Positions 31,620 through 64,000 of a DNA stretch of 64,000 bases are shown in pieces. The DNA lies in contig CM114271.1 of the NCBI GenBank assembly GCA_050084515.1, positions 26,040,001-26,104,000 on the forward strand. Reading direction: 5' to 3'. The notes beneath the pieces were generated by a model. That model ran no database searches, was not told the DNA's origin, and was given only the letters and a program-made list of their open reading frames with translations. Origin of the DNA: Blasia pusilla (Eukaryota). Both the position numbers and the translations under genes were made by a program. Position 1 is the first letter of the stretch. Every line of letters starts with the position of its first letter.

Positions 31620-32620
31620 TACCACACCCATTGTGTGGCGCATCCTAGAGGAGGGTATTCGAGTGTTGGATCTCTTTGGAGGGATCACCACTGGATTAGT
31701 TGCTGTTTAGCAGGGAGGAGTATGCGTGCAGTAGTACCTGTATATGGAGATTGATGATGTTGCAAGGCGCGCTTCACTTCACCATGTGGCGCAGTTACGC
31801 CTCCATTTTTTTGACTTTTTGTGTGCATCCGCTATCCAGGGATACCGGAGTTCCCTACCGAGGGATAGTTCATTGCTGGGGACGCAAGACTTGGAGCGGG
31901 TAGGGACCATAGACTTGGTCATTGCTGGTTGGCCGTGTCAGGGCCAATCGAGTGCTAGACAAGGTAGCGGGTTAGTTGACACACGGTCCAGGTTATTTTG
32001 GGAGATGATGTGGAATTTGCAACACTTGCAGGAGCATTAGTCCCGTTCTCCAGCATACATTCTGGAGAATAAGCCGATCTTGGGCGATTCGAGGTCAAGG
32101 TGGTGACGAGTGCACATCAAGTGTGTACATGGATCGACTCAATAGTATTTTTGGATGCGGCGAGTGTAGGTTCTAGAGCACACGGCCCGCGCCTTTGGTG
32201 GACCAACTTGATCGCACATGAGGTTTTGCGGAGGGCTTATGCAAGAGTGGAGCACCCCTCCGATTTGTTGGTGGATACTATTTTGGATCCAGGTCGTCAA
32301 TCACACGCAGTGAGGCACGATGATCGATCACCGTTGACTATGGTCAAGAGGATTGGCATGCGACGAGCAGTCTTTCCCACATTTTTGAGTTTTCCCGCTT
32401 CTTATGTAGTCAAGGAAGCCATACCTGGTTTGGTTTGGGATGACCAAGTACAGAGGTTGGTGGAGCCCAACGCCGATGGGCACGAGCGAGCGATGGGATT
32501 CCCCACTAGAGTGACGGTAGTATCATCACTATCAGAGGCATCACGACGTCTTTTCTTGGGTCACGCGATGGACCTGAATGGCTTGACATGGATTTTCAGC
32601 TTAGGCGTAGTTGAGCAGCA
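31620..32620 (+). pseudogene. C5 cytosine DNA methyltransferase domain within Pol of element A (disrupted)
   Basis: Motifs in order: VLDLFGG (I), EID (II), DLVIAGWPCQG (IV), YILEN (VI), RAHGPRLWWTNL (VIII), ERAMGFP (IX), LGHAMD (X). In-frame stops and a frameshift. Confidence 0.92.
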
Positions 32621-35600
32621 TCGTTTGAGGATGCGACAGATCACAACTATTGCGTTGGTGAGCCCCATACATGCCAAGATGGTTGAGGCAGTGGCCGGGG
32701 GCCAGATCGAGGAGATCGACATACTAGGGGTGATCGGGAGAGACACATTTGAGGAGATTGACACACCAGGGGTGATCGAGAGAGACACCCTTGGACTTCT
32801 TGGGATGTTTTGCACGTACGCCATGAGATGGTAGCCACAATATCGAGCGTGTTACTACACATGGAGGAGATCGGGTTTTACAGTTGGATGTAGGAGATCA
32901 GCCGAGTGCAACTGTCCGAGACGGGGTTGCACCATAGCAACCACCTACATCCGGGCCGGAGAGTCCTACTGTAATCACGATGGAGACTTGGGAGCGTGAC
33001 ATAGACCCTAAGTTCACAGGAGGAGAATGGCGCCGGATACATCAGTTCTTGAGGAGTTATAGGAGTTGTTTTGCATTTAGCATGCAGGATTTGGGTATGC
33101 TAAAGTGTCCAGGGATCCGCATTGAGTTGTCGAGTAACACACCGATCTTCCGACGATCCTACAGGTACTGTGACATGGAGAGGGCTCTAATTCAGAGTAG
33201 GAGCCAGGATTTGGTTGGAGTAGGACTAATGGAGATGTCGCATGGAGAGTATGCATCTGCCACTGTCATGCCCGCCAAGAAGGATGTGCATGGCAACTGG
33301 ACGGATAGGGGTATGTGTGGAGATTACCAACCTATCAATCGGCAGACAAAGTCTGATAGGTATGCCATGCCCATCCTAGAGGAGATATTTGATGCGATTG
33401 GGCATGCAAAGATCTTCAATTCATTGGATTTGCAAGCCGGATATCATTAACTGCCTATCAGATTGGAGGACACGCAGAAGACCGCATTTTGGGGCATCGA
33501 TCCTCACGGGAAGGATTGTTTGTACCAATGGAGGTTCTTACCATTCGGGTTTACGAACGCCCCAACTGAGTTTCAGAGGATCATGGATCATAGATCTTGG
33601 CAGGTTTGGATTTTGCTAGGTGTTATATTTATGACATCGTAGTCTTTAGCGCCACGGTTGAGGAGCATGAGCGACATCTAGAGGAGGTGTTCCGACGATT
33701 GTAATTACATGGGCTAAAGCTACATCCAGGCAAGTGCAAGTTCTTCTATGACCAAATTGAGTACTTGGATCATACATATACCCAAGGGGCCTTGGTGTGC
33801 AACAGACGAAGGTAGAGGCTATTTCACGCATTCCATGCCCTACATATGTGAGTTGAGTTCGTGCATTCATGGGATTGGAGAACTTCTATCGATGTTACAT
33901 CAAGGGTTTTAGTTTGATTGCAAAGCCACTAACCTTGCTAACTAGGTGGATCAGGAGTGGCACTCGGGGGATGAGCACGAGAAAGCATTTCAGCTGCTCA
34001 CGGACAGATTGACGTCCGCGCCCATATTGAGGAGATCGATCAGGGGGCGTCCTTTCCAATTGCATACCGATTGGAGCATGTTGGGGCTTGGAGCCGCGCT
34101 CACCCAACATAATGATGATGGTAGAGAGTTTGTGGTGGCTTACGCAAGTCACTCAAACAACGTTGCAGAAGCGAAGTATAGCTCGTATGAGGGTGAGTAC
34201 TTGGCTGCGGTGTGGGCTATCGCACATTTCAGTTGTTATTTATTCGACAACCCCTTTACCATCATTACCAATTATTAGCCACTTAAGTGGTTGATGGAGT
34301 CCGACAAGCCCACAAGGAAGCTTGCGAGGTGGGTTCTTTTTTTGGAGGAGTATGACTTCTAGGTGGTGCATAGACCTGGGATACTCAACCAGGATGCAGA
34401 TGGTTTGAGCCATAACCCATGCTCGAGTCAACAAGATGCAATTGGAGCTTGTTGGCATGGTGAGAGTGATGAGGAGTTGGTGCCAAGATGGCACGCGCCA
34501 GCCAATTTGGGACTACTGGCTATGGAGAGCCAGATTGCCGAGACTTTGATGGTGTGGTCTGATGGAGAGTTCTTGGATCCAGAGGTTGGTGAGGAGACAA
34601 CAGGTGGCCGAGATATTCACGACGATGGAGTGGTCTTGGAGTACCTACGTATTGGCAGTGTCGCGAGCATAGTGGTTGCTAGAGAGCGGGATTGGATCCT
34701 ACAGCAAGCCAGACGGTTCGGGTGGGAGGGGACACATGTGTTGCGAGTTTGGGAGGATGGTAGAGTCCGTAGAGTGCCTCATCCTTTGCAGAGAGCACAT
34801 TTGGTGCGTCATGCCCATGAGGAGTTGGGTCATTTTGGAGTGAAGCGGACGTACAACTTGCTCCAGATTCAGTATTGGTGGCGAGGCATGAAAAATGACG
34901 TTTAGTAATTTGTTGCCAGGTGGTGTGTGATCGAGTTTGGGCATCGTTCAATGCTCCGACTCCACAGTTACATCCACTTTCGATTATGGGTTTAGGTTAT
35001 AGATGGAGTTTGGATTTTGCAAGACCTTTACCTTTGGCGAAGCGCCATAGTCGGTATGTGTTGGTGATGGTCGAGCACTTCTTGAAGTAGATAGAGTTGG
35101 TTGCATTGCCTGAAAAAGAAAGTGAGGGAGTAGCATATGCCTTCCTAGATCAAATGTTGAGTCATTATGGTGCAACAGTTTAGGGTTTGACAGACCAGGG
35201 TACAAAGTTTCGCCAGGAGTTTCACGCCTTGTGTGATCAGGCACTGATCCACCATCGCACTACTTTGCGAGATCATCCTAAGGCGGATGGACTAGCGGAG
35301 CGGGTTTTGCAAACGGTGAAGAGAGGATTACGCAACTATGGCTTGTAGAGAGGTTACCTAGGAGATTGGGACCTCCAGTTACGGTGGTTGGCGATGGGAT
35401 ACAGATTCAACAGACAAACATCCTTAGCGTCTTTCTCACCGTACATGCTGCTCTATGGCCGAGAGCCAGATTTACCTACGGCCATTTGTCGAGAAATTGG
35501 TGAAGTTTTGAACCTTGATGACCATGATGTATGGATGCGAGCATCTTCTCAGAGGGCTAAGTTATTTCGGAGAGTGATGCCCAAGGTGTTTGAGAACTTG

Positions 35601-35794
35601 GTAATTGCGCAACATCGGGATACATTGAGGTATGCGACTATGCAGGGAGGTGGTTATCGACCTACTATCCGGAGGTTTCATCAAGGAGACTTTGTCTACT
35701 TGCAATAGATGGCACCAACAACGTTGGATGTGACTGCAGGGCGCACCATCTTGAGAGCGCGTGAGATTTTGCCATCTGGTGTTCTCTTGTTGGA

Positions 35795-36182
35795 TTCTCA
35801 ACATCCACTTCTCTGAGCACCATTAATCTGATCGCCCCCCTTGTATGAGGAGAAGCCTAGATTGATGGTTCCGACTTAGACGTCAAAGGAGTCATAGTAA
35901 TATGACGTAGGTGGTTTCAGGAGTAGCGTTACGAGGATTATCTAACCCAATTTTGCAAATTTTATCTATTAATAGAAACAAAGAAAATTAGGTAAAAACC
36001 GTAGTTTCTCGAGTAGTGAAATAGTCGGGAGCCGTAGCGGTAGCGCATTCTCGTATGTCGAGTTATCTCCATATTCAGGTTTCATTGAAGCTCTTATGTG
36101 AGCGCACGGACGGACTAGGCCACTTTGTATCTCTAGGTTTTGTAAAGATTTCAGTGATTTTGTCACTTTCTGTTTTCTCATA
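35795..36182. mobile_element. Unclassified 388-bp insertion in the integrase C-terminal region of element A
   Basis: Flanked by TCTCTTGTTGGA (35783-35794) and TCTCTTATTGGA (36183-36194). Removing it restores LPSGVLLLEGRDG; elements B and C lack it. Confidence 0.75.
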
Positions 36183-39100
36183 TCTCTTATTGGAGGGACG
36201 CGATGGTATGGTTTGGAAGGACCATGTGCGTAACTGTGCGCGATGTCATCTTCCAAAAATTGACGGTATAATTGATCCGAGCTTAGCAGTAGTTCCTGTA
36301 GGCTTGCGGTGTATGTTGTGTGGTTCAGCCACTACGCTAGTCTGTGATGGGTGTTCGAGAGGATGGCATATGGCATCTCTGACGCCATCTCTCACTAGGG
36401 TTTCTGAGGGACGATGGATGTGTCCCAGATGTACATAGAGTAGGTAGTTCTAGATTCAGACTTGTGTCTGTGACATGGATGACAAGAAGGGGACTAATGA
36501 TGGGGCCACATGAGCACCCAACCTTTTTGCTCTTAGCGTCCGAGAGATGTATATCATGGTAGGTAGGGATAGATGGCTACCTGGAGTTAGAGGGACCTAA
36601 CCACCAACTAGGGGGGCGATTGGAGATATTTTGGTACTTCTTGTCTCGTTGTTTGGATGACATGAGTTAGCATGGGATTTTACGTGTTTGTGTGTATGTT
36701 TGTCGACAACGATGTATGTTGTGTAGCGATGTGTATGCCCACGACAGCTGTCATGACTTTTCAAGATAGATGAGAGAGATCTGGTAGAGCGCCTTCACGA
36801 GTAGAGGAGGACACGCTCAGGAGGTCGAGGATGACGTGCTGAGGTCTTGAGAAACCTGAGAGAGCAAGTTTTCCCTTCGTTTCGGCTCATTTGGACCCAT
36901 ATAGAGCAACTTATTATTTCGAGTAAGTTTCCATTTTTGGTAGAGTTGAATTTCCACTTTGGGAAGTGGCCCTTGACCTAACCTATGGCTCTTGACCCGC
37001 TACAACAGGTCCAGAGCCAAGGAGGTGACTTGCAAGCATAGGTTAGCGAGGAGAGAGCTTGGGAGAGGGAAGGGGGTATACCTCAAGGAGAGAGAGAGAG
37101 AGAGAGCTTGAGAGCTCATTCTCTCTTTGTTGAACCTCTTGGCATGAGGCGACGGAGCTGTGGTCCCTTTCCTTGTGAGTGTAACCCAAGCCTCTCATTA
37201 GGAGAGTGAGTTTGGTTTGATATTGAGAGAGACACGTGAGAGTGCACACATTTGAGAGCTATGGTGTTGAGAGAGATTGAATCTACTTGATATATTGGAA
37301 ATATTTTGGTACTTCTTGTCTCGTTGTTTGGATCCCATGAGTTAGCATGGGATCGTGCGTGTTTGTGTGTATGTTTGTCAACAACGATGTATGTTGTGTA
37401 GCAATTTATATGCGCACAACACAGCCATTAGTAGCACATAGTAGTAAGAGCAACTGATGACCTGCAATTGGCAAACAAATTACATAAGAACAGAGAGGTA
37501 GTGCCCCGTATGAAAAAACGTAGAGGAAAATTTGAACACGGTGGCTTGCATTGCTAGATCAATGTTTTGCACTATAATCATCGGAATCAAATGTACTTAG
37601 GAATCGCAGGTTGCCACAAAGACGTTCGCAAGGGACACGAACTTAGAACCGCCACTGCAAGGAAACAACAAAGTATGGCGGCATGGTAGATCAGGATTAC
37701 AATTCCAGGAGATAGTAGGCAAAGATGAGGAGAGACCATCAATAGAGATAGGAAAGGAATGAATACGATTATGGCTGTAAGCCCTTGCGCTATGTAGTGA
37801 AAGCTAATATGGGCCGAACCTGGTGGAGGCGGCCAGTTACAGCTACAACAAATGCAGCCTATATAATTGCCACTCCCTAAAATAATGCAATTGCAAATCC
37901 ATGCTGTGGCGGACATTGTGCACGATTGGGCAGTAAGGCCGCTAAGATCGCAAAACAAAAAGATTCATCCAATGTGAAAAGACCTAAGAATTCAAATGGC
38001 ATAGCGTCCTAGGCCTTGGCGCAATAAAGAGGATGAAGAGCTTACAATAAGTTGTAACACGTATGTAAACTCAGCTTCATGAGGACCTGATTGCCAGAGA
38101 AGCACGCAGCCGCGCCATTGCATCCATGCCCCAAGCCGTTTTATTCTTACTAAGAATGGATAGGGATGCAATTGTGCATCAGAAATGAGAGACTAAATCT
38201 GTGTTGCGACAACGACCATACTCCTTGACAATAAGATAGCATCACAATTGCAATTGCGTTGTGGAGAGTGCATACACAATCTAGACATGACCAACATCCA
38301 TGGCCTATTGATATTGTCTGGAGAACAATTTATAGAGGCTGAATACCGCGAGCGGCGAGTCAGCAATCGAGAGCATAACACAGGAAGCATGAACTACCGA
38401 CAATAGTGGAAAACAATCCCAATGAATGGACACCGACAATTCCGTGTTTCCCTGTTTAGAACTCGAGTCTACCAAAGGCGTAACTCGCTCATCCGATGCT
38501 CTCACTGGTGAACACTTCTTGTGTGTAGCCATCGTAGCCTTCTTGCTGTGGCTGAAGCAAATCTCGAGGCTTGCGTAACAATCCATCAGCCAAACTAGTG
38601 ACGCATACATGTATTAGACACGTGGACACCTTGCGCGGTCTCTGCACTCCGAGGGATGTGTTGCGACCATTAGGGACGGTGGCAACACGGAGGGAGGCGG
38701 ACAAAGCTTGTGCACGTTGTAAGGCTACTGAGATATATTGCCAAAATTAAGGAGTGACTACAAAGAGAGAAGGACTATGAAGCAGTGATGGAGGCGGATG
38801 GGGACGGTGGAGGAGGATGCCATGGAGGGAAGGAGGAGGGAGATGGTTCGTGTGATATACCAAAATGGAGATCTCAGTCTCCTCTACGTTTTGATCCGCA
38901 TCATCGATCTTATAGTGAAGTATTTTTTGTTTTATTATGTTTTTTAGATTCTTGGTCTTATTATGGTTTCTCATGTAGGTATTATGATGCCCTTTGTTGT
39001 CTTGCCTCATTGTCAAGTTATGGACGTTTCCAAGATAACTCATGTTTTTCTTTCACACCACCCCTTTTTCTCTACATCCTTCCCTTTTGGCCATGCATAT

Positions 39101-49543: not shown

Positions 49544-52500
49544 ATATATAGCATTTAGATTTAGAAGATGACAATTCTTAGTTAGACGGACCTAATGAAC
49601 CTAATCAAAAGCTAGGAGGATGATTGGGGTGCTTCCATGTCATTTTTGGCATCGTATTTGAATACGATGCCAAAGATCATGATCGTATTTGAACTTACAC
49701 AATCACCCAAACCTTGTGGACACAACACCTTGATATATTTATATTCAAATAAAATCAATGATAACCTCACAAGACCTTAGGAAGACCATCACCTTAATTG
49801 TAATCAAGATTTGAGGGACTTTGTAAGCTAGCTCAAAGTTTCTTTGAGCTAACAATTTTTGTAATTTCCCTTTTACCTATAACGAGTAGTTTCTCATGAG
49901 TGAATAAGTAAATTGAGATCTTTGGGTGTCGCTTGTCACTCAGCTCTTGTGAAGCTCTCTTCCCGTTCCATTCCACATGAACAAGAATGCGGCCTTGGTA
50001 TTGTCAAAGAAAGGGTAGCAAATATAGTAAGCCATGAAGTTGAGTAGACATCAATAAAGCAACAATATAGGAGGGAAAAGTGAATGCCTTTTGTGAAATG
50101 CCATCGGGGCATGCTGCAGATGGTTGTATACAATATAAAGACTGACGTAGTTTTCATTGACCATAACGATGTAGGATACCAAGGTGTGATGCGTGCTGAT
50201 GTTAAGTTTAGCTATCGGGCTCGAGTCGTCTTATTAGCGTCGGATGAAGACAAAAACTTCGATTGGCGGACTTTCGTTTGACTAGTTACTAGCTAAGATG
50301 GCTTAGCAAAGTCTTCCTATATATTCTTCAAGCCTATATATAGGTTTGATAGAGTCTTCCTAGCTATCCAGGGTGGGGTGACCCTTATCCCCATAAATAG
50401 CTGCGCCTTTTCTTGCGTAAGGCTAGTCTTAGGGCGCATGCTTGTCTCACCTAGTGTTAGTCCTACGACTGGTTTCCTCATTATTCGTAGTCTTGTGACT
50501 ACCTAGTCTACGTTTAGACTTTGGTGAGTGAAACCAAAGTCTTTCCTCTATGGACAGACGATCATAACTTGCTTCTCGACTCCCTTGTCGTGCGAATCCA
50601 CATCGTAATACAACATACATCGCTGACATACCATACTCACATACATACATAATATAGATGAGAGCATCCACAAACACAAGTGTACCACAACTGAAATCCG
50701 TGAAAGAACTAATGTCATAAAACACGTATAGAATCACATACAATCGAACCAAACCCACTCCACGATGGGAGAATCCAGTCGAAGCTTGCGGGAACCATCA
50801 TAGCCAAGAGCTCTACTCACTACCAAGGCTAACTCCAAACGCAAGAGGCTCAACTCAAAGAACTAACTGTTCTTTGAGTGCACTCCACACTATATCCTCC
50901 AACCTAAGAGCGGGCCCTACTGGAAAAGTCACCCTCAACTGAGTCACCCTCAACTGAGTAACCCCCAACCCTATGTATGAAACCGCATCTCTACCTAGAC
51001 ACTACGGCCCTACATAAGGTATGGCCTCTACTAGCACACTATACTCTACAACATAATCCGTACGGTCATGACAGTTGTCGTGCGAATCCACATCGTCATA
51101 CAACATACATCGCTGACATACCATACTCACATACATACATAACATAGACGAGAGCATCCACAAACACAAGTGTACCACAACTCGTCCCCCTAACTGGCGG
51201 TTAGGTCCCTCTAACTCCCAGTTAGCCCTATACATCTACTACATGCTATACACCTTCGTGGGTGCACGAATCAGAAGGCCGGGTGCTAGGTTGCCCCATC
51301 GTTAGTCGCACATCTGTAATCCATATCATGCAAAGATCAAGTCATCTACCTCTCCTAAGTACATTGAGGACAAACCCACCTTCCAGTAGGAACAACATCC
51401 ATACGTGGACTCAAACATATCATGTGCCAACCCCTAGAACACCGATCAGACACCAACATACGGGCTGCGTTACCAGTAGACCCATACAACATGCACCTCA
51501 AGCTAGCACGTATCATGGCTAAGCTCGGGTCAACAATACCAATCACATTTGGAAGATGACATGGCCCACAATTACGCACATGGTCCTTCCAAACAACTCC
51601 ATCACGACCCTCCAACATGAGAACTCCAGAAGCTAACACCTCGCGCACTCGTAAAATAGTGCGGCCTGCCGTCACATCCAACGTTGTCGGTGCAATCTGA
51701 TGCAAATAGACATAGTCCCCCACATGGAACCTACGAATCGATGGTAAATAACCTCCACCCCGAATGGTTGCATACCGCAACGTATCCCTGTGTTGAGCAA
51801 TGGCAAGATTCTCAAAGGCAGTTGGCATAACTCTCCAAAAGAGCTCTGCCCGCTGAGAACACACTCATCCACATCTTTGGGTCATCAAGGTTCACCACCT
51901 CACTAGACTCCGACAATTGTCCTTTGGCAAGTCCGGATCTCGGCCGTATAACAGAAAATAAGGTGAGAAGGAAGCCAAGGATGCTTGGCGACTGAACCTA
52001 TACCCCATGGCTAACCATGGTAACTGAATATCCCAATCTCCAAGATGCCCCTTCTGTAGGCCATACTTGCGCAATGCCCTCTTTACCGTCTGAACCACAC
52101 GCTCAGCCAAACCATCTGCCTCTAGATGATCTTGAGACGTGGTCTGATGATCAATCAACGCCTTGTCACACAAGACCTGAAACTCACCCCAAACTCAGAC
52201 CTTGGTCGGTCAAGACTTCATTTGGTGCACCAAAATGACTAAACACTCTATCAAGAAACGCATAGGCCGTTCCCTCACTTGCCTTGTCAAGTAATGCCAC
52301 CAACTCAATCCACTTGGAGAAGTGGTCCACCATCACCAACACATATCGATGATATCGTACAGTCAACGGTAACGGTCCCGCAAAGTCCACACTCCAACGG
52401 TAACCCAACCCCATAATAGGCAAAGGATGTAACTGTGGTGTAGGGGCATTGAATGATGCCCTCACCTGGTCACAAACCATACAACGTGACACCAACTACT

Positions 52501-54704
52501 GCACCTGAGTATGCATGCCACGCCATCAATATTGACCAAGGAGTAAGCTATACGTACGCTTTACCCCAAAAGGTCCCAACTCCTCATGGGTATGTCGCAC
52601 AATGCGCTCTCTCTGAGCCAAATGCAACACTACTCGTACTCTACCATCCTCCCACACACGGAGAATATGTGTTCCCTCCAATCGATACCTCTTAGCACAT
52701 TGAAGAACACGGTCTCGCTCCTTGGCACTCACTATGCCTGGCACCCTACTGGTCCGTAGGAACTCCAACACCAACGCATCATCATGAATATCACGTTGAT
52801 CTGTACCACATCTCTAACCTTTGGATCTAAAGGCTAGCCATCTTCCCTCTGACAAGAGTAAGATGTCATGTGGTCCTCCATACTAGAGTCCACCCCTAAC
52901 CAACATAAAAAGGCAGATGCATGCCCACCTGGCACCATCTCCTCATCAACCTTGCTATGCCATCTAGCCCCAGTTGCATCCTCTTGGCTAGTACATGGGT
53001 TCCTACTCAACCGATCAGCATCAAGGTTGGCAACTCCAGGTCTATGTACCACCTGGAAGTCATACTCTTGTAAGATAAGAGCCCACCGTGCAAGCATCCA
53101 TGTAAGCTTGTCAGACTCCATCAATCACTTGAGCGGCTGGTGATCAGTAACAAGGATAAACTGTGTGCCAAACAAGTAACACCTAAAATGTGCCACAACC
53201 CACACTACTGCCAAGCACTCTCCCTCATATGAACTATAGCACGACTCCGCTGCATTATTCGAACGACTTGCATAGGCCACCAGAAACTCCATGTGCTCAT
53301 CATCATGTTGTGTCAACACCGCTCCAAGTCCCAACCTACTCCAATCAGTGTGTAACTGAAATGGGCGTCCTTTGATAGGTCTCCTCAAGATAGGCGCCGT
53401 CACCAAATGGGCCTTGAGCTCCACAAAAGCTCTCTCCTGATCATCTCCCCAGTGCCACTCCTAATCTGATTTCAGCAATTGGTTCAAAGGCTTTGCCATA
53501 ACACTAAATCCCTTCATATACCTCCAATAGTAGTTTGCCAATCCCATGAATGCCCGAACTCTATTCACATCTACTGGATGAGGAATAAGTGCAATAGCCT
53601 CCACCTTTGCTTGCTGAACTCCCAAACCACCTGGATAGATCACATGACCCAAGTACTCAACATCCTCATGGAAGAACTTACACTTTCCTCGATGCAAACG
53701 TAGACCATAAGCTTTCAACCGATCAAACACAATCTGCAAATGTATCTAATGCTCCTCCACCGTGTTACTGAACACCAAGATATCATCAATGTTACACCGG
53801 AAAAATCCAATCATGCTAGGATCTTGTCCATGACTCTCTGAAACTCGGCACGTGCATTCTTAAACCCAAAAGGTAAGAATTTCCACTGGTACAAACAATC
53901 TTTGCCATGAGAGTTGACACCCCAAAATGCTTTCTTGGCCTTGTCACTCTCGCGAATTGGCAACTGATGGTATCCTTCCCGAAGATCCAAAGTACTGAAA
54001 ATCTTTGCCTGTCCCACCACATCAAAGATCTCCTCAGGTGTAGGCATGGCATACCTATCGTCCTTGGTTTGCCGATTGATAGGACGGTAATCTCCACACA
54101 TCCGCCTATCTGTGTAGTTGCCATGCACATCCTTTTTAGCACGCATGATAGTGGTTGATGCATACTCTCCATACAAAAACTCCACTAATCCAACCTCCAA
54201 AAGGTCCAACGTCCTACTCTGAATCAAGTCCCTCTCCATATCACTATATCGGTAGGGATGACGGAAGATTGGCGAATCACTAGCCAAATCAATCAGTATA
54301 TTGGGTCCAACCAAAGCACCCAACTCCTTCATGCTTAAGGCAAAAAAACTCCTATAAGCACGTAGGAATTGTGTCAAGCGTCGTTTCTCACCTCCCCTAA
54401 GCTTGGGCCCAAGTAATGGCTCCCAAGTCTCCTCCACTAGCACCCTAGAGGGAGAGGATGATGCCATTGGCTGCTATCCAACCCCCTCACAAGATGGTAC
54501 ACCCTTAGCTACACCATCATCTGAGCAAATAACTCCTTCACCAGCATGAGCAACCAACTCCACATGCCCAACCATTACATCCCATTTACTCCAAGGATGC
54601 AAAATACTATCTTCCTCGCCCCCAACCGATGTCTCTACCGTCCCGTTAGCCATTGAGCTCATCACAAGGGGTGGAAGACCCATAGACATAGTCCAAAATC
54701 GACG

Positions 54705-55690
54705 TTACTCGGCCATCCTAAGACTCAAAATCCAGGTCAAACAATTCAGGTCCATGGCCTGACCCAACACATGACGTCGTGAAGCCTCAGAAATGGAAGC
54801 AACCGCTGTCACACCAGTAGCAAATCCCATCGCACGCTCTCTCTCATCAGCATTAGGCTCCACCAACTGTCGCACATGCGAATCCCATACAAGCCAAGAA
54901 TCACCTTCCTTGTAGGCATGTGACGAGGGAAAACTCACAAATTTTGGTAGTGCTATCCTAGGCTGGCCCACACGGTTCACCACTGCCATGGGTGACCGAT
55001 CAATAACCCTCACCACCTGAGAAAGTTGCCCATTATCCAAGATAATATCCATTGTAAGGCAAGGATCCCGCTGCACTGCATCATATGCTCGACGTAGAAC
55101 CTCCCTAGGCAACAAGTTTGTCCACCACAAGCGTGGACGATGTGCACGCGAGCCAACTCGCGCTGCATCCAACAACACCGTTGGTCCAATCCAAGAACAC
55201 TCGCCATCATCCGGGTCCGAGTGTCATCCAATAATGGAACATTCTCTAGAATGTAAGCTGGAGCACGTGCCTGATGAACCTGAAGATGTCGTAACACCCG
55301 TAACATCTCCCAAAACAATCGAGACCTAGGGTCGTGTAATCCCTCACCACGACCAGCACGTGTATGACCCTGACATGGCCATCCAGAAATCACCAAATCC
55401 ATAGGACCAACGCTCTCAAGGTCCTGCGCCCCCAACAATGCAATGTGTGACGGCAAAGCACGATGGTACCCACGAATAGCTGATGGCGGCAACAACTCAG
55501 GATATCTCTGCATCAAGTGACCAATATGTCGGGATGAGACTCTCTGGGCCGTCTCATCTCGCTCCACATACACGTATCTCCGCACAAGAATACCGGCCTA
55601 CAATACTGCAGCCAAAACCACTGCTAATCCCACCAAAGAGATCTAACACACAAATGCCCTCCGGTGGATACTGCCATACAATGGGTATAG
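54705..55690 (-). pseudogene. C5 cytosine DNA methyltransferase domain within Pol of element B (frameshifted)
   Basis: VLDLFGG, YVERD, DLVISGWPCQG, YILENV, RAHRPRLWWTNL, ERERAMGF and LGQAMD. Confidence 0.94.
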
Positions 55691-58600
55691 TATCCAAATG
55701 GGATAACCAATGGACAGAAGTAGGAGTCCGTGGGGCCTCCTCTTCCTCGTGAGGTATAATGACCTCACACCAAGCCCTTCGCACTAGGCGATCAACCTCC
55801 GCCATAGTGCACCTTTGAACTCCAAAGTGGCACATCCAACGATGAGGATGCCTTTGCTGCAAAACTAGGGACCTCCTCTACCTCCTCATGCATAGGAGAA
55901 TCCATAGCAGAAACATTACCCTCCAAAAAGTCTCCTGGCCAAGTGACTACTCCACTAAAACCAGCCACAGATGCTAACACTGTTGGGGAAGACCCTCCTG
56001 GTCGAGCCCCATAAATAAATCTCATTGGAACTTGGCTCATACGTCCATCCCCGAACTGCCAATCAGGTCTATAAGACGCTGTCTCAGTCCAGTAATCCAT
56101 TTGAAAACCCATCGGGTACAATACTGCTCCTCCAACTAGTACATCATACGACTCGGCTAATGTGACCACTGCAGGTACTCCCAACCGGGAGCTATCAGTC
56201 GCATGATTTGGTCTCAACTGTACAGAAAACTTCTCCCGTATCATGAATTGAGACCTATCATTGGCTCCTCCAAGTGATGTTTGAATCTGGAATGGGCAAG
56301 GCTCAAGCTCTGACCTCCGAATACCCAAACCAATACATGCCGCCTTTCCCAACATCAAAGGTTGGGCACTAGAGTCTAACAACACTCTATCTGGTCTATA
56401 CACATGTCCTGTAGGACTCACCCATCGGAATATCCCACTCCGATTGTTCAACATACATACACATGGTGTAAGCCTCTCACGATCAATGGCTGGCCGGGCT
56501 GGTAATGCATCCATCTTCGCCGCTGCTGCCTGCCAAGTAGCACTGATACTCAATGCTAAACTTGATATAGAGGGTCGCTCCACCGCAACACCCTCATCCA
56601 CCTTAGCACGTGTAGCAGTAACACCCCCACGTTCACACAACGTGGCTGCTAGCTGAAATACAGGAGCTTAGTCAACTCCTAAAGCCATCAGCTCCGTAGC
56701 CGAAAAAAATGGGGATTCCAACACAGAAGTTGCCATCCGCAATACTGCACTGGATGCTGCATCTGTGTCTACTACACGCGATGTAGATGCCTCAGTCCCC
56801 ACTTTAGGCTCAATAGGCCGTGTAGGAACCATGGATGGAGTCCTAAGCACCTTAGACAACAAGAATGACTGGGGAAGCCTAGCCTGCCTCCCAACCTCAC
56901 CCCTCTGCCGGTCCAACTCCACAGTAGCACCACGTGGCTCTGACGCTCGAGTGGCTCCTCTTGTAACTACAACTGATGCCTCAACTTGTGCTGCACTCGC
57001 CATAGAAGAGAGATCATCCCCTCCATAAGAGGTGGAAGCCCCTGCTCCTGAACGTGCTCTATGCTGGATACCAGCCATAGTAGCAAACTTCTGCTCCAAC
57101 TGCTCAATCCTGGCAGCCATAGCTGACTCTGTTGTAGTGGTACGGGTAGCCACCGTAGGCTCTCCAACCACTGGTCCACCTCTACCACCCCTACCACCTC
57201 TACCACCTCGGCCTCTCGGAGCTACTCCACCACGGCCGCGACCTGATCTCAACTCTGGATGAAGATCAAAGCAACGCTCTCGAGGATGACCTGGTCTCCC
57301 GCAATGATCACAGTGAGTTGGGGCCGACTGAGGCTCATCCTCCAAAGTCCGTCTCCCATCCTCTTGGGGACAAAACCTCCTAACATGATCACCTCCACAT
57401 GTCCAAGATGACTGTCCTTGCTATGGGGCAGCAAATGAAGGCAATGGTCTCTACGCAAGTGTCCCTCTAGGACCTGACTGAGGTCGTGTGTACCCCCACG
57501 ACTCCCACTACTACTACCACCACCACTACTATGAGACTGTGAGGTGGACTGCTGAACACGAGAAGTAGTAGTTGTATCCCTACTGAATGCGGATGTCAAC
57601 ACTCTCTCCTCCACCATGTTAAGCTCAATCTTCTCAAATAGAGCAAACACATGGGTCAATGTGGGTGAATCATCATTCATATGAGTAGCATCACGTACCC
57701 TACGGTGCAACTCTCTGTCCAAGATCCCATACCAAAACTGGACTGCCTGAGCCTCAGTCACACCCTGGGTAACTAAAATCAAGCGTTGCATACGAGTGTA
57801 TGCCTCACGAAGACTCTCACTAGTCTTTCGCTCAAATTCCTGAAGACTCCTCAACTTCTCTATCTTCACTCCCTGATAGTTCTTCTTCAACCTCTTGAAG
57901 AATTCTGCAACCGGGCTGAATGATGGTGAGGCACTAGTACCTCCATGGGTACCTCCACTGGTACCCCCACTCCGGCTCGTACTCGTACCACTCAACGTCG
58001 GGCTGGCTAGCATAGTAGGAGCACTACTACCAATACCACCATGGGTCATAGACACATAGCCTGGAGACCAATATTGTCTCCACGCCTCAATCTCAGCAAA
58101 TGCAACATGGTCCTTCCTAAACTCATGGTAATCATCCATGGGTGGTCCCTCCAAGTGCTGAAACAACCCCTTCCAAACCAAGAAGGGTGTAAACAACGTG
58201 GCGTTCCACAACATCTGCATATCACACCACGTATCAAACTCCCGAATGAAGTCCTCCAACTCAATGGTGCCCACTGCACCCAAGTATCGTTTTGGGCCCT
58301 TCATGGCCCCATATATCCCGTCCATGTCCCAAATCAATGGAGCTGCAACACTTGATAACAACGTAGAAGACTCGGTGTTTGGAACACCCTCGTCCTCCTC
58401 TTCATCAACCGTTGGAAGTGGAAAAGGTAGCCGATATCTCAATCCACTCTGTGTAAAACCACCATTGTCCGCACCACGGTCGCCAACCATACCAACAGAC
58501 ACCTCCGTGATGACCAACGTCGATGCCGCACCACCACCAAATCACCACCACTAAGTAACCAAGTGACATCGATGTCGCTGTACTATTCTAGCTCTACTAG

Positions 58601-60040
58601 CTATGGGTGTAGGCAACCTAACCTATCATCACCACAAGAAGCCTCCCACGGTCTACTGGTCATCACTCTAGCCTCACTACCGGTAGGTAGCACACAGGAG
58701 TAAAACTACTCTAAAATCAACGTCAATCCTAACAATGGGCGCGCAAGCAAGAAGCAACGATGGAGGGGATCCAAACACATGAAGTCCAACGACAACCCTC
58801 CAATGGCAAATGGAAATCAAGGTCACACAATCCACCAAACATGGCGCCCCCTGAATCCACAGAACCCACCACACAATTCTAACGCAATAGCTACTCCGCC
58901 GTTGGTCGATGACGTGCTAGTCGCACTCGTAGCCCCTGAAAATATCACCTGCATGGAGAGGCTACACCATACTATGCGCTAGAGGTCCATCAACCAAAAA
59001 CCCGAGATGCATAAAGCACCTAACACATCTCCGAACAACACCAAATGAGCTACATTAGTGTGTACAATGACATAGTTAAGAACTCAGCAGTTAAGCGTCT
59101 TCCAGGCAGAATAACCCAAAGATGGGTGACCAGTTATGCAACACTCAACTCACAAATCCTGCAAAAATTGCCTCACGCCCAAGCAAACAAGATTTCTTGC
59201 TTGCTCCTTGCTCCTTACTCCGCTTCTCACGCCCACTCACCCCAAGCTACCATGAGTTGCCTCAAAGCCTCAAAACGCCGAGAGATGCTCGAGACATGCC
59301 CCTATCGCCCCGTTCACCACGCTCCGCCATGCTTTGCTATGGAGAGAGGCCCAATCAAGACGCCCCCAACTGGATAGGCGTCTCTAATAATGGACGAATC
59401 ACCAACCAACCAGCCCCTCCGATCTGTTGTCCACCATAGCCAGACCTTGAGCTAGTCCATGAAATTTCGATCAAAAATTACTCCACAAATCCTCAACCAA
59501 AATTGAATCTCTTTCAACCAGAATTCAATTGGCCACAATAACTATCTCTCCACAAAAAATCAGCTACAATCAAGCTCTGTACTCCGAGCTAAAAATCAGA
59601 CAAACTTGCTGTCCGTACACCTCCAGAATTGCAAATCCAACAACGCTTCCGTCCACATTCATGCACACAGAAATCCGCAATGCTCCACACACTCAAGCAG
59701 ATAGCTTCACATGAGAGCACAATACAAGTAGTCATAGGAACCTCTCACCCAATCTGGATGAACTTCAACAGAGCTTCCACACTCCAAGCTCTCCACATAA
59801 GAAAACCGTCAAACACGAACCAGAATCTTCAATCCTTGATAACTTCCAACTCCCTTAACAAAATCCGGCGATCTAAAGAGCGTTGGAAATCTCTCAGCAA
59901 GACGCTTCTTTCCCAACCAAACACGCACTAGATTCACACCTCCAACATAGGCCACAATCCATGAACATCCACGGCTGAGTACATAATCAGCCCTAACAAG
60001 TTCCTACTGATCCATGATCAAAGCAACCATGGATCTACTC

Positions 60041-60053
60041 TAGTTCTTTGAGT
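60041..60053 (-). promoter_or_regulatory. Self-priming-type PBS of element B
   Basis: 13-nt exact complement of 60215-60227, which lies about 25-30 nt downstream of a TATA-like site (GGATAAAG in A1, GGATATAG in A2). Confidence 0.75.
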
Positions 60054-60511
60054 GAAATCCGTGAAAAAAATACTGTCATAAAACACGTATAGAATCACAT
60101 ACAATCGAGCCAAACCCACTCCATGATGGGAGAATCCAGGTCTAAGCTTGCGGGAACCACCATAGCCAAGAGCTCTACTAACTACCAAGGCTAACTCCGA
60201 ACGCAACAGGCTCAACTCAAAGAACTAACTATTCTTTGAGTGCACTCCACACTTTATCCTCCAACCTAAGAGCGGGCCCTACTAGAAAAGTCATCCTCAA
60301 GTGAGTAACCCTCAAGTGAGTAACCCCCAACCCTATGTATGAAATCGCATCTCTACCTAGACACTACGACCCTACATAAGGTATGGCCTCTACTAGCACA
60401 CTATACTCTACGACATAATCCGTATGGTCATGACACCCTGCTATTGTGAGCCCCATAGACCTACCTATTCGCGACTTCTCCAAGAATATCTATGGATGCC
60501 CTTGGTGATTT

Positions 60512-63500
60512 TGTCATGCGCATACCCATCATTACACAACATACATCGTTGTCATCAAACACACACACAAACACACACGATCCCATGCTAACTCATGGCA
60601 TCCATACACAAGAAGTACCAAAATATCTCCAATCGCCCCGGTAGCTGGTGGTTAGGTCCCTCTAACTCCATATAGCCATCTATCCCTACCTACCACGACA
60701 TACATCTCTAGGACACTAAGAGCAGAAAGGTCGGGTGCTCATGTGGCCCCATCGTTAGTCGCCTTCCTATCATCCATGTCACAGAAAAAGTCGGAATCAA
60801 AATCTACCTAGTATCTCCTCTATGTACATCTGGGACACATCCATCATCCCCGAGGAACCCTAGTGAGAGGTGGGATCAAGCATGCCATATGCCAACCTCT
60901 CGAACATCCATCACAGACTAGCATCGTGGCCGCACCACGGGCAGAACCACACAACATACAATGCAAGCCTGAAGGAACTACTGCTAAGCTCGGATCTACT
61001 GTACCATCAATGTTAGAAAGGTGACATGGCGCACAATTACGCACATGGTCCTTCCATACCATACCATCGCGTTCCTCCAACAAGAGAACACCGGATGGCA
61101 AAACGTCTCGCACTCTCAGGATAGTGCGCCTTGCAGTCACATCCAACATCGTCAGTGCCATCTGTTGCAAGTAGACATAATCTCCTTGATGAAACCTCCG
61201 GATAGGTGGTCGATAACCACCATCCCGAATAGTCGCATACCTCAACGTATCTCGATGATGCGCAATCGCCAAGTTCTCGAACGCCATGGGCATCACTCTC
61301 CGAAACAACTCACCCCTATGAGAACATGCTCGCATCCATACATCTGGGTCATCAAGGTCCAGCACCTCACCAGCATCTCGACGAATGGCCTCAGGTAAAT
61401 CTGGCTCTTGGCCATAAAGTAGCAAGTACGGTGAAAAAGACGCTAAGGATGCATGCCTGCTGAATCTGTATCCCATCGCCAACCATGGCAAGTGGAGGTC
61501 TCAATCTGCTAGGTGACCTCTATACAAGCCATACTTGCATAAACCCCTCTTCACTTTCTGCACAACTCTCTCCTCTAATCCATCCTCCTCAGGATGATCT
61601 CGCAAAGTCGTGCGGTGGTGGATCAGCGCTTGATCATACAAGGCCTGGAACTCACCGCAAAACTAGGTACCCTGGTCTGTGAACACCTCAGCCGGTGCAC
61701 CATAATGACTCAACACTCTGTCAAGGAAGGCATAAGCTACTCCCTCACTCGCTTTGTCAGGCAATGCAACCAACTCGATCCACTTCGAGAATTGCTCACA
61801 CTTCTCGAAGTAAACGACTCTGATGCTCTGTCAAAGGCAAAGGTTCTGCAAAATCCCAACTCCATCTATACCCTAAGCCCATGATCGATAATGGATGCAA
61901 TTGAGGAGTCGGAGCATTGAACGATGCTTGGACCCAATCACACACCATGCACATGGCAACAAACTGCTGAACGTCAGTCTGCATGCCTCGCCACCAATAC
62001 TGAATCTGGAGCAAGTTGTACGTCCGCTTCACCCCAAAGTGACCCAACTCCTCCTAGGCATGTTGCACTAGTTGTGCTCTCTGCAAAGGATGCGGCATTA
62101 CGCGTACTCTGCCATCCTCCCAAACCCTCAAAACATGTGTCCCCTCCCAACGGAACTGTCTGGCCCGCTGTAGGATCCGATCCCGCACTCTAGCACTCAC
62201 GGTGCTCGCAACGTTGCTAGTACGAAGGTACTCCGAGACTACTCCATCATCATGAATATCTCGGCCACTTGTCATCTCCTCACTTGCCTCGGGATCCAAG
62301 GACTCTCCACTAGACCTCGCCATCAAAGTCTCCACACTCTGGCTCTCCATAGCCAACATGCCTAAATAGGCTGATGCGTGCCATCATGACACTAACTCCT
62401 CATCACTCTCTCCATGCCATCGAGCTCTAGTTGCATCTCGCTGACTCGGGCATAGGTTAAGACTCAACCCATCTGCATCCTGGTTGAGCGTCCCAGGTCT
62501 ATGTACCACGTGAAAATCATACTCCTGCAATAACAGAGCCTATCTCGCAAGCTTCCTTGTAAGCTTTTCGGACTCCATCAACCACTTCAATGGTTGATGA
62601 TAAGTGATGATGATAAACGGGTTGCCGAATAAGTAACACCTGAAATGCGCGATAGCCCACACTGCAGCCAAGCACTCACCCTCATACGAATTGTACTTCA
62701 CCTCTGTAGCGTTGTTGGAGCGGCTAGCGTAAGCCACCATGAACTCTCTACCCTCATCATCATGCTAGATGAGCATCGCTCCAAGCCCCAACATGCTCCA
62801 ATATGTTTCCCAGGTCTATGCACCACATGGAAATCAAACTCCTTCAACAACAGAGCTCACCTCGCAAGCTTCCATATAAGCTTGTCGGACTCCATCAACC
62901 ACTTAAGTGGCTCATGATCAGAAATAATGGTAAAGGGGTTGCCAAATAAACAACATCTGAAATACGCGATAGCCCACAATGCAGCCAAGCACTCATCCTC
63001 ATACGAGTTATACTTTGCCTCTGCAGCGTTGTTTGAGCGACTAGCGTAAGCCACTACAAACTCTCTACCCTCATCGTCATGCTGGGTGAGCATGGCTCCA
63101 AGCCCCAACATGCTCCAATCTATATGCAATTGGAAAGGATGACCCTTGATCGGTCTGCTCAATATGGGCGCGAACGTCAATCTATCCTTCAGCAAGTGAA
63201 ATGCTCTCTCCTACTCATCCCCCAATGCCACTCCTGATCTACCTTGGTCAGCAAGGTTAGCGGCTTTGCAATCAAACTAAAATGATCGGTCATCCACGAC
63301 AATGGTAAACCGTGTGGGCCAGCCTAGGATGGCACTACCCACATTTGTGAGTTTTCCCTCATCACATGCCTACAGGGAAGGTGGTCCCGGGCTTGTATGG
63401 GATTCTCATGAGCGACAGTTGGTGGAGCCTAACGCTGATGAGAAAGGACGCCCCCTAATCGGCCTCCTCAAGATGGGCGCGGACGTCAACCTGTCCTTGA

Positions 63501-64000
63501 GCAACTGAAATGCTTTCTCTTGCTCATCCCCCCAATGCCACTCGTGATCCACCTTGGTAAGCAAGGTTAGCGGCTTCGCAATCAAATTGAATCCCTTGAT
63601 GTACCGCCGATAGAAGTTCGCCAATCCCATGAATGCCCGAACACGACTCACATCTGTAGGGCGTGGAATGCGTGAGATAGCCTCTACCTTGGTCTGCTAA
63701 ACACCAAGGCCCCTTGGGTATATCGTATGACCCAAGTACTCAATCTGGTCATAGAAGAACTTGCACTTGCCTGGATGTAGCTTCAGCCCATGTAATTGCA
63801 ATCGTTGAAACACCTCCTCTAGATGTCGCTCATGCTCCTCAATCGTGGCGCTAAAGACTACAATGTCATCAATATAATACCTAGCAAAATCCCGACCAGC
63901 CAAGATCCTATCCATGACCCTCTGAAACTCAGCCGGGGCGTTCTTTAATCCAAATGGTAAGAACGACCACTTGGACAAACTCCCCGCATAACCTTCTACT
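60512..64000 (-). mobile_element. Element C (same family as A), 3' part: RT (YIDD), repeated RNase H segments, INT, PHD and a single B repeat
   Basis: PFGLKNAP...YIDD (63697-63978); RNase H segments at 62857-63195 and 62540-62800; INT; PHD CMLC..CDGCSRGWHMAC..CPRC; B repeat 60633-60512 ending TGACA, with no A2-B2 after it. Confidence 0.9.

Follow-up and report, generated by a model that had tools for sequence, protein, structure and literature searches.

The 64,000-nucleotide stretch of Blasia pusilla DNA analysed here (the window) contains a Ty3/gypsy-type retrotransposon in a decayed state. It encodes a DNMT3-like methylase, and its repeats are split, in the order A-genes-B-A-B. This order is the transposed unit and a rule of the family, not an accident: once integrated, members of the clade normally read A - PBS - genes - G-run - B - NN - A - B, in which NN is a 2-nt spacer. 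Regarding its origin, we consider it probable that this is a degraded copy from a bryophyte/streptophyte Ty3/gypsy-type clade whose integrase would cut a CA-NN-TG junction after the cDNA tips have been joined, with a directional route being favoured.

Layout and boundaries of the element

The main copy lies on the minus strand (60435..50586) and reads A1, PBS, gag-pol, G-run, B1, 2-nt spacer, A2, B2:

60436..60439, no strand: target-site duplication (TSD), 5' side (AGGG on the minus strand), from sequence reading
60054..60435, minus: A1, 382 nt, start TGTCATGACC, from repeat comparison and sequence reading
60227..60215, minus: candidate self-primer segment in A1, from PBS complementarity
60042..60053, minus: PBS ACTCAAAGAACT, predicted self-priming type, directly after A1; reverse complement of A1 positions 209-221
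51183..51195, minus: polypurine-like G-run AGTTAGGGGGACG, abutting B1 on its upstream side, from sequence reading
51076..51182, minus: B1, 107 nt, from repeat comparison and sequence reading
51074..51075, minus: 2-nt spacer AC between B1 end (CA) and A2 start (TG), from sequence reading
50693..51073, minus: A2, 381 nt, start TGTCATGACC; 94.3% identity to A1 over 383 columns
50894..50891, minus: TATA within A2, from sequence reading
50864..50853, minus: predicted transcript start/self-primer segment AGTTCTTTGAGT in A2, by analogy with A1
50586..50692, minus: B2, 107 nt, end CGCACGACA; 97.2% identity to B1 over 108 columns, B1 copy-specific variants present
50582..50585, no strand: TSD, 3' side (AGGG on the minus strand), same four letters at 60436-60439

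Read off the letters of the minus strand, the 5' boundary runs from cagc through AGGG into TGTCATGACC, and A1 ends with CGGATTTC immediately before the PBS. The G-run region closes with GTTAGGGGGACG and is followed by B1, which extends from AGTTGTGG to CGCACGACA and is separated by AC from the A2 start. On the 3' side, the A2 end CGGATTTC passes directly into AGTTGTGG of B2, whose last letters CGCACGACA adjoin AGGG agtcg. The A pair, the B pair and these boundaries sustain the claim of an earlier note on this DNA that the repeats are split and that no ordinary LTR pair is present. Likewise, the letters at both flanks agree with the outer TG...CA ends and the exact 4-bp TSD (CCCT on the plus strand) that it had described, the chance of one exact 4-bp flank match being ~1/256, and in the A2/B2 joint the base immediately ahead of the PBS indeed adjoins the one immediately past the G-run. 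A full LTR bounded by TG..CA at both ends is absent in the main copy, where the 5' end consists of A only and the 3' end of B-NN-A-B, and the same unequal ends occur in 4 other complete copies.

The window also holds two further related copies, here E'' and E', which the earlier note did not mention. E'' repeats the layout of the main copy, from which it is about 70% diverged, and E' ends in the A-genes-B form:

27035..37421, plus: E'', second copy; A'' pair 85.3% over 442, B'' pair 90.6% over 128
27035-27486, plus: A''1 of E''; 5' end not found
from 27486, plus: PBS of E'', from boundary reading and PBS complement
36619-36746, plus: B''1 of E'', then spacer GC, from boundary reading
36749-37293, plus: A''2 of E'', start TGTCATGAC, from boundary reading
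37294-37421, plus: B''2 of E'', from boundary reading
60512..64000, minus: E', older related copy, represented by its 3' part and extending past the window end; ~70% identity to the main copy and 84% to E''
60633..60512, minus: single B' of E', then unrelated flank

Layout across the family

Among 80 related metagenome loci, B-A-B ends are present in 30, corresponding to 17 independent sites. The classifiable independent 3' ends of these loci (n=38) comprise 17 B-A-B and 21 B-only, and counting in the window copies brings B-A-B to 19/41; the B-only calls, made in short-read metagenome contigs, may partly represent assembly short-cuts across the B repeat. B was found beside A at none of 13 independent 5' ends, and no A-B-A-genes-B form was seen. 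All five independent complete B-A-B copies, the main copy included, are flanked by an exact 4-bp TSD whose letters differ by copy (TCTC in L022, CATA in L023=L053, AAGG in L034 and AATC in L050). Together with the second window copy and the 17 independent sites, these duplications establish A-genes-B-A-B with a 4-bp TSD as the norm that the earlier note had suspected.

The junctions are equally regular. At least four consecutive G occur in the last 10 nt before B1 in 30/30 B-A-B loci, and the B1/A2 gap is 2 nt in 24/30, these 24 being the loci whose printed frame shows CA/TA abutting TG/TA (the joint is not visible in the other six frames); the gap letters vary (GC, AT, TC, AC, GT).

Definition of the LTR and its termini

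With a G-run ahead of B and a PBS behind A, the reverse-transcribed LTR is B-NN-A. The earlier proposal of a B+A LTR without TG/CA tips is thus borne out by the G-run and PBS positions, the spacer refining it to B+2 nt+A. B starts and A ends vary between subfamilies and lack TG/CA. The integrase-type ends, TGTCATG... and ...CRTGACA, form an imperfect inverted repeat and stand back to back as CA-NN-TG inside the LTR; when the B end is read as its reverse complement, TGTCGTGCG, it agrees with the A start TGTCATGAC at 7/9 positions. TGTCA.G and CA.GA.A are kept between subfamilies with only 53-63% protein identity, the remainder of A being unalignable, and the TSDs adjoin exactly the A start and the B2 end.

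Regarding the history of the repeats, B1 and B2 of one copy have copy-specific variants in common over their whole length, no diagnostic column separating 10 B1 from 10 B2 was found inside B, and the identities of the A pair and the B pair go up and down together across copies. The nearest neighbour of B1 is its own B2 in just 9/19 copies, a count that fits a star-like family and is no positive proof of renewal. The A2/B2 joint of the five complete copies is exactly as predicted in three and off by 1 nt in one, and that of L022 is extended by 17 nt and, in addition, by 4 nt from the G-run region. As judged from these sequences, B1 and B2 are renewed in every cycle and the A2/B2 joint is newly formed each time.

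Primer-binding site

A complement to the PBS (9-17 nt) occurs at a constant position, 146-164 nt ahead of the end of A, in 11 of the 14 independent 5' copies, and was not found at the expected place in the other three. The PBS/primer pairs exist in three covarying versions (ACTCAAAGAACT, ACAAAGAGAGAATGA and AATCACCAAAAGT), and in 8 of those 11 copies a TATA lies 23-33 nt upstream of the complement. The first ~12 bases of the predicted transcript, located inside A ~30 nt past the TATA box, pair with the PBS: nt 1-13 do so in the predicted leader fold of the main copy, and the 5' end pairs with the PBS in 5/5 folds. Taking this predicted transcript start, the PBS would be of the self-priming, Tf1-like kind, a feature absent from the earlier note.

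Coding capacity

The coding region of the main copy contains the following features:

56671..58541, minus: gag region and Cys/His-knuckle ORF; PF03732 Retrotrans_gag E 0.0037 (17.9 bits, under the Pfam cut-off of 24.1)
54708..55597, minus: C5 cytosine DNA methyltransferase domain, broken, in two overlapping frames; PF00145 E 1.8e-9
53128..54473, minus: reverse transcriptase and RNase H, three broken ORFs; RVT_1 E 6.5e-12 and 2e-5, RT_RNaseH_2 E 4.4e-32
51895..52495, minus: integrase core, two broken ORFs; PF00665 rve E 1.2e-10
51358..51864, minus: integrase C-terminal region with PHD finger; PF00628 E 3.7e-7

In coding order, the pol of the element comprises gag, a DNMT3-like methylase, RT, RNase H, a DDE integrase and a PHD finger. 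The order RVT_1, RT_RNaseH_2, rve is read on the minus strand, relatives show RT_RNaseH-Integrase_H2C2-rve in a single ORF, and PHD and rve lie within one ORF in the relative L053. The best solved relative of the integrase is the Ty3 Gag-Pol 7q5b (E 8.7e-28). In the gag-region translation, a knuckle-like CxxC...H...C pattern was spotted by eye.

PF00145 is found in the window copy and in relatives. DNMT3A is the best match of a relative's methylase ORF among solved structures (E 5.4e-11), and DNMT3A/3B/3C are its top solved matches, far above bacterial methylases. The C5-DNA-methylase and PHD domains did not figure in the earlier note. Its claim of a DDE integrase holds, given the rve match. 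No tyrosine recombinase was found: 29 ORFs of at least 90 aa on both strands lack any Phage_integrase match, and the 9 ORFs of relatives had none either.

All copies seen are broken, with a longest ORF of 545 aa over 80 loci, and there is thus no sign of current activity for this exact family. RNA reads are mostly 90-99% alike and therefore derive from other copies.

Proposed route to the integrated form

How the cDNA reaches its integrated form is something that we infer from the arrangement of these sequences. The cDNA tips would be joined first, A end to B start, so that the unit keeps a second A and B end; the second A would be needed because any copy must make terminally redundant RNA. 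The tips may be joined either by ligation, which makes a 2-LTR circle, or by the plus strand switching templates end to end when it is at the right tip. The integrase would then cut both strands at one internal CA-NN-TG junction, which would leave a recessed CA-3'OH and a 2-nt 5' overhang at each of the two ends, as on normally processed ends. The absence of A-B-A-genes-B copies favours a directional route, in which the plus strand would get to the right tip last and continue into the finished left tip, giving ...B-NN-A/B-NN..., and the integrase would then act on the A start furthest to the left and the B end furthest to the right. The equally common A-genes-B copies could be a dead-end form, arising by use of the middle B end, from a 1-LTR circle or by later B1/B2 recombination.

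The mechanism of the earlier note was simpler, namely that linear B-A...B-A cDNA is ligated to a 2-LTR circle and the integrase opens one internal B/A junction. Its placement of integrase-type TG..CA ends at the internal B/A junction stands. The A2/B2 joint equals a tip-to-tip joining, is renewed per cycle and is at times sloppy like circle junctions, CA-NN-TG resembles a compact circle junction, and cleavage of LTR-LTR junctions by integrase has been published for foamy virus and HIV-1 (PMC1180852, PMC1905944). However, a 2-LTR circle has two equivalent B/A junctions, and random opening would produce A-B-A-genes-B as often as the observed form. Against 19/41 B-A-B among independent 3' ends, A-B-A-genes-B accounts for 0/13 independent 5' ends, which under equal frequency of both forms has a probability of ~(0.55)^13 (<0.001). 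We therefore regard this simple model as unlikely.

It is very improbable that A-genes-B is the basic mobile unit and that B-A-B copies are secondary, as tandem dimers with one unit internally deleted. B-only ends are as frequent as B-A-B ends (21 vs 17 independent sites, with E' as an instance in the window). Of the six B-only copies with a known 5' end, two carry exact TSDs (TGTT in L007, ACTA in L010); L064 has none and L008 matches at 3/4 letters only. However, the TSDs bracket the entire A...B-A-B, the spacer is 2 nt at every readable joint, the A and B pairs within a copy are similar in age, and a unit without a second A would probably be incapable of yielding terminally redundant RNA.

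Even less credit can be given to a tyrosine-recombinase retroelement of the DIRS/Ngaro/PAT type, or to a like scheme in which the RNA enters B2 and B2 comes from the parent's B2. The A-genes-B-A-B order has been described for such elements (de Mendoza et al., 2018, PMC5890265, Fig. 1e legend), but the window element encodes a DDE integrase and none of its 29 ORFs of at least 90 aa has a recombinase match. Moreover, B2 bears the copy-specific variants of B1 throughout and hence is not separately inherited. The insertions carry 4-bp TSDs; insertion by a recombinase is not known to leave a target duplication.

Finally, a conventional element with LTR = B+A at both ends, rearranged or misassembled in the window, would agree with the LTR-like position of B+NN+A between G-run and PBS but is refuted by the same layout in E'' and at 17 independent sites of other assemblies, by the 5/5 exact TSDs around A start and B2 end and by the lack of a 5' B.

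Returning to junction cutting after tip joining, we are evenly divided on the broader proposal that the whole clade has moved its integrase ends from the cDNA tips to CA-NN-TG in U3, making end-joined (circular or concatemeric) cDNA obligatory. If so, a Ty3/gypsy element would have arrived by convergence at the same logic as tyrosine-recombinase retroelements and the circle junctions of bacterial IS elements, and nature would offer a case of a retroviral-type integrase for which cutting a junction is the main pathway, not a side reaction.

Relation to known systems

The earlier note knew of no description of this architecture, a statement that does not hold: the layout is already in print once, for the algal KnitGypsy-Dnmt3, whose figure legend gives it the repeats of a DIRS element and the domains of Gypsy (de Mendoza et al., 2018, PMC5890265, Fig. 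4c), its mechanism being left unexplained there. A Gypsy-DNMT3 of streptophytes is named again in bioRxiv 10.64898/2026.05.21.726589. KnitGypsy-Dnmt3 and the window element show the same combination of a DNMT3-like methylase inside a Gypsy-type pol with DIRS-like repeats. Compared by description, they differ in that the main text of PMC5890265, so far as searched, gives no termini, TSDs, PBS type or mechanism for the former, and 'PHD' is absent from that main text. No Klebsormidium protein is among the named matches of the window element, its named relatives being from Marchantia polymorpha and Sphagnum fallax.

Ngaro, PAT-like and SymbioDIRS elements have split direct repeats in the order A - coding - B - A - B (PMC5890265). 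The window family shares this order and an internal B/A junction holding joined ends. However, those elements encode a tyrosine recombinase and the window family a DDE integrase, together with 4-bp TSDs, TG..CA inverted-repeat ends, a G-run and a PBS that set it apart from them. The TSD length falls within the 4-5 bp given for plant Ty3/gypsy elements (Neumann et al., 2019, PMC6317226). The same source describes the Tf1/Sushi group and the plant Tcn1 clade as self-priming Ty3/gypsy elements with ordinary LTRs and chromodomains. They resemble the window family in a PBS complementary to their own transcript start (here a predicted one) rather than to a tRNA; the window family differs by its split repeats, its methylase and a PHD finger instead of a chromodomain after the integrase.

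Foamy-virus and HIV-1 integrases cleave the palindromic LTR-LTR junction of 2-LTR circles (PMC1180852, PMC1905944), and the proposed action of a DDE integrase on abutted ends within a junction would be alike. In those viruses, the junction arises only by ligation of cDNA tips, as a side path, whereas the window family has CA-NN-TG in every LTR and cDNA tips without integrase ends. In the circle junctions of IS3/IS30-type bacterial insertion sequences, inverted-repeat ends abut a few bases apart and are a reactive substrate for a DDE enzyme. These are DNA transposons without reverse transcription, and the likeness is an analogy only.

Significance

In the textbook view, retroviral-type integration uses both tips of a linear cDNA. 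In the window family, the integrase ends stand back to back inside the LTR and not on the tips, yet insertions have clean 4-bp TSDs. Should junction cutting be the main route, the family would be a natural model for an activity debated in retroviruses since the circle-junction hypothesis, and would explain an origin of split repeats without a tyrosine recombinase. Programs that search for LTR elements by a pair of full LTRs will probably annotate this abundant family wrongly. In addition, the DNMT3-like methylase and the PHD finger have a bearing on the dealings of elements with host chromatin.

Anatomy, coding content and affiliation

The main copy, a retrotransposon on the - strand of the window (50586-60435), is a new, bryophyte-related Gypsy-DNMT3 element, and its layout is in itself not new. 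Direct-repeat search and self-BLAST place A1 at 60435..60054 and A2 at 51073..50693 (94.3% alike over 383 columns), and B1 at 51182..51076 and B2 at 50692..50586 (97.2% over 108 columns), all on the - strand. Read on that strand, the element runs from AGGG through A1 (TGTCATGACC...CGGATTTC), the primer-binding site (PBS, ACTCAAAGAACT), the genes, GTTAGGGGGACG, B1 (AGTTGTGG...CGCACGACA), the spacer AC, A2 (TGTCATGACC...CGGATTTC) and B2 (AGTTGTGG...CGCACGACA) to AGGG. Repeat search, self-BLAST and sequence reading agree with the coordinates of the earlier note, and the TG...CA outer ends, the 4-bp duplication (AGGG on both sides, - strand) and the A2|B2 joint (CGGATTTC | AGTTGTGG) are as it gave them.

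A domain search of the broken ORFs on the - strand detected gag (a weak match, under Pfam's cut-off), a C5 DNA methylase (PF00145, E 1.8e-9), reverse transcriptase (RT), RNase H, an rve integrase and a PHD finger. Neither the methylase nor the PHD finger had been mentioned in the earlier note:

54708-55597, - strand: DNMT3-like C5 DNA methyltransferase, between gag and RT
51358-51864, - strand: PHD finger, after the integrase

The PHD finger occupies the post-integrase place, where chromoviruses have a chromodomain. No tyrosine recombinase was matched in a domain scan of the 29 ORFs of at least 90 aa on both strands. The methylase ORF of relatives has DNMT3A/3B/3C as its best solved-structure matches (E 5.4e-11; bacterial M.HhaI at ~1e-3), and their RNase H-integrase ORF has Ty3 Gag-Pol (E 8.7e-28), followed by foamy-virus integrase. 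In a protein search, the relatives bearing names came from Marchantia polymorpha and Sphagnum fallax and are annotated as hypothetical proteins. Methylase, RT, RNase H, H2C2, rve and PHD domains are all retained in metagenome polyproteins as long as 2239 aa; none of the collected loci holds an intact polyprotein.

The earlier note knew of no description of this architecture, which is already in print: figure legends of de Mendoza et al. (2018; PMC5890265) give KnitGypsy-Dnmt3 repeats as in DIRS and domains as in Gypsy (Fig. 4c), and define the DIRS-type structure as A-coding-B-A-B (Fig. 1e). A preprint names 'streptophytes (Gypsy-DNMT3)' and does not discuss their structure (bioRxiv 10.64898/2026.05.21.726589). 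By titles and abstract starts, none of the matches listed for retrotransposons with 'split direct repeats' concerned integrase elements, and nothing was found in the literature, supplements and figures aside, on how Gypsy-DNMT3 elements end, prime or integrate, or on their duplications. In this regard, our analysis adds for this family the 4-bp duplications, the inverted-repeat ends that lie at the internal junction, a predicted self-priming PBS, the renewal of B2 in each cycle and a one-sided permutation.

Layout across the family

Copies were gathered from the window, one metagenome contig scan and one read mapping. The metagenome query consisted of aligned ORFs for the integrase C-terminus and PHD finger of the three window copies; 284 stretches matched, 136 of them coding for relatives, and the best 80 of these 136 were retained and all annotated for A-like and B-like segments. 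Within the window, self-BLAST and sequence reading resolved a second copy, E'', and the 3' end of a third, E':

27035-27486, + strand: A''1 of E'', followed by the genes
36619-36746, + strand: B''1, followed by the spacer GC
36749-37293, + strand: A''2
37294-37421, + strand: B''2
60633..60512, - strand: single B' at the 3' end of E', upstream of the main copy, then unrelated flank

E'' has the layout of the main copy although their inner parts are only ~70% alike; within E'' the two A repeats are 85% alike and the two B repeats 91%, and A''2 starts with TGTCATGAC, as does A of the main copy.

Forms of the 3' end among the best 80 of 136 metagenome loci
PHD-B-A-B: 30 loci
PHD-B, followed by no A for at least 450 nt: 26 loci
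Contig ending too soon past B: 4 loci
Other (B-A-inverted A in three; B-B-A; A-B; B-A cut): 6 loci
Downstream sequence not usable: 14 loci

After merging of loci with an identical 60-nt flank, the B-A-B ends which the earlier note had described in the main copy are found at 17 independent metagenome sites, together with 21 B-only sites. A 5' A is present in 16 loci, which amount to 12 independent copies because their flanks show that L008=L077, L010=L012, L023=L053 and L034=L060. B adjoins this 5' A, as B-A or A-B-A, in 0 of the 12, and no B lies upstream of the PHD match in any of the 80 loci. The split-repeat layout is real and general.

Three loci (L001, L011 and L014) carry B, A and the inverted first 180 nt of A, fused exactly at the A end; either the arrangement is head to head or all three represent a single site. 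Additionally, an unrelated repeat of ~820 nt is inserted in A2 of a single copy (L013 / L018) and is seen again in many loci, in both orientations; it is a different element, likewise abundant in this host genome.

A predicted self-priming PBS and the extent of the LTR

In 11 of 14 independent 5' copies, the bases after A are the reverse complement of an A-internal segment 146-164 nt before the A end; within A, no such complement occurs in L022 or L074, and that of L023 lies at another place. PBS and segment covary in three versions: the main subfamily and the window copy have ACTCAAAGAACT, E'' has ACAAAGAGAGAATGA and L064 has AATCACCAAAAGT. Of the 11 copies with a complement, 8 have a TATA motif 23-33 nt before the segment; A2 of the window copy keeps this motif intact (50894..50891), and A1 has it in mutated form. 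Transcription is predicted to begin at the first base of the segment, ~30 nt past the TATA motif, with the poly(A) site expected within A2 or where A2 ends. In predicted leader folds the first 12-18 nt pair with the PBS in 5/5 cases; the start point was chosen so, yet the pairing is kept in the minimum-energy fold.

The predicted arrangement is the self-priming one of Tf1. A passage of Neumann et al. (2019; PMC6317226) predicts self-priming for the plant Tcn1 clade as well. Since this PBS directly follows A, the A end would be the U5 end and the reverse-transcribed LTR would be B-NN-A, NN being the 2-nt spacer between B1 and A2. A run of at least four G lies no more than 10 nt upstream of B1 in 30/30 B-A-B loci; as read from the sequence, the G-run and the PBS set this LTR.

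The A of the main subfamily also contains a perfect hairpin, CTCAAAGAAC-N5-GTTCTTTGAG (50878..50854, - strand; same in A1), which arises because the PBS sequence is repeated in the 10 nt that immediately precede the predicted transcript start; it is absent from E'' and L064.

Integrase-type ends and target-site duplications

The A start TGTCATGAC and the reverse complement of the B end TGTCGTGCG form an imperfect inverted repeat (7/9 positions). Its core, TGTCA.G ... CA.GA.A, is retained even where the PHD ORF of a subfamily has no more than 53-63% identity to that of the window and the remainder of A is not alignable. B starts and A ends differ among subfamilies and lack TG/CA. The B end and A start adjoin as CA-NN-TG, with a 2-nt spacer (AC, GC, AT, TC or GT) in the 24 of 30 B-A-B loci whose extracted B1|A2 stretch includes the joint; the stretches of the other 6 do not include it. 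X1 contigs hold at least 8 variants of the joint of A start, few letters and B end, contigs being no measure of copy number.

In line with the duplication claimed for the main copy, 4-bp duplications flank the A start and B2 end elsewhere: all four further complete B-A-B copies have exact ones (TCTC in L022, AAGG in L034, AATC in L050, and CATA in L023 and L053, one site), so that, counting the window copy (AGGG), 5/5 independent complete insertions have one. Where the 5' end of a B-only copy is known, the duplication is exact in L007 (TGTT) and L010 (ACTA), agrees in 3 of 4 letters in L008, is absent from the ends of L064 and is not readable in L037 and L074. At the level of sequence, these comparisons show the A start and B end to be integrase-type ends with 4-bp duplications.

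An alignment search did not find the 5' end of E''. A candidate duplication, CAGC, before the TG at 26907-26912 and after B''2, was dropped, as 26911-27040 fails to align with the A''2 start (score 24.5, shuffle mean 37.4; 498/500 shuffles as high).

Renewal of B2 and a proposed directional model

When 10 B1 and 10 B2 from independent copies were aligned, no column inside B separated the two groups; diagnostic columns lie only upstream of B (G-run versus A end). In the window copy, L029, L033 and L050, B1 and B2 of the same copy have their copy-specific variants in common throughout B. The A2|B2 joint is exactly as predicted for tip-to-tip joining in 3 of 5 complete copies, one base off in L034, and in L022 longer by 17 nt, in part re-copied from an A motif close by, and by the CGAG with which the G-run region ends. 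Taken together, the copies compared show B2 and the A|B joint as made anew in every cycle. A nearest-neighbour test of B1 against B2 (own partner nearest in 9/19 copies), uninformative in a star-like family, was set aside and replaced by the diagnostic-column test.

We propose that integrase would cut both strands at the CA-NN-TG junction, leaving CA-3'OH ends with 2-nt 5' overhangs. This is the usual geometry of processed ends. The substrate would need an A end already joined to a B start. Such a joint could come from a 2-LTR circle in which either internal B|A junction is opened at random, but A-B-A-genes-B should then be as frequent as A-genes-B-A-B; with B-A-B at 19 of 41 independent 3' ends and A-B-A at 0 of 13 independent 5' ends, the chance under random opening is ~(0.55)^13, <0.001 by our own arithmetic, and we regard this route as unlikely. 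A directional step is therefore favoured: for instance, the plus strand, last at the right tip, could switch to the finished left tip and copy B-NN. Following such a directional switch, integrase would use the sole left-hand A start and either of the right-hand B ends, yielding A..B-A-B or a dead-end A..B. B-only copies could also come from 1-LTR circles, B1/B2 recombination or, in short-read contigs, assembly short-cuts.

Reads and RNA

Read mapping shows the family to be highly repeated in 'organism A' runs; in all four runs no reads cover 50200-50553, and depth is high as of the following 354-nt bin. In two raw RNA runs under the same species label, the first mate lies nearly always on the + strand, which for most types of stranded library denotes sense-strand RNA, and depth climbs toward the 3' end. 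RNA reads are almost all 90-99% alike, and only 15/4251 and 9/4224 reach at least 99%; the expressed copies are therefore others than the window copy.

Two joints were seen in RNA only: 60099|51040 (13 reads), which links A position ~337 to ~34 with a 4-nt overlap and no possible GT-AG, and 51229|51131 (17 reads), a 97-nt skip that takes out the G-run together with the first half of B1. Both may stem from template switches or from deletion derivatives that are expressed. Small shares of the main copy's words also occur in several air-metagenome runs.

Other features in the window

22695-24616, + strand: Ty1/copia pieces (SH3_retrovirus and RVT_2, E 3.5e-68)
496-1038, - strand: copia-type gag fragment
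7761-8417, + strand: ORF coding for the terminal part of a voltage-gated chloride-channel domain and for a CBS domain

The last of these probably represents one exon of a gene for a CLC channel.
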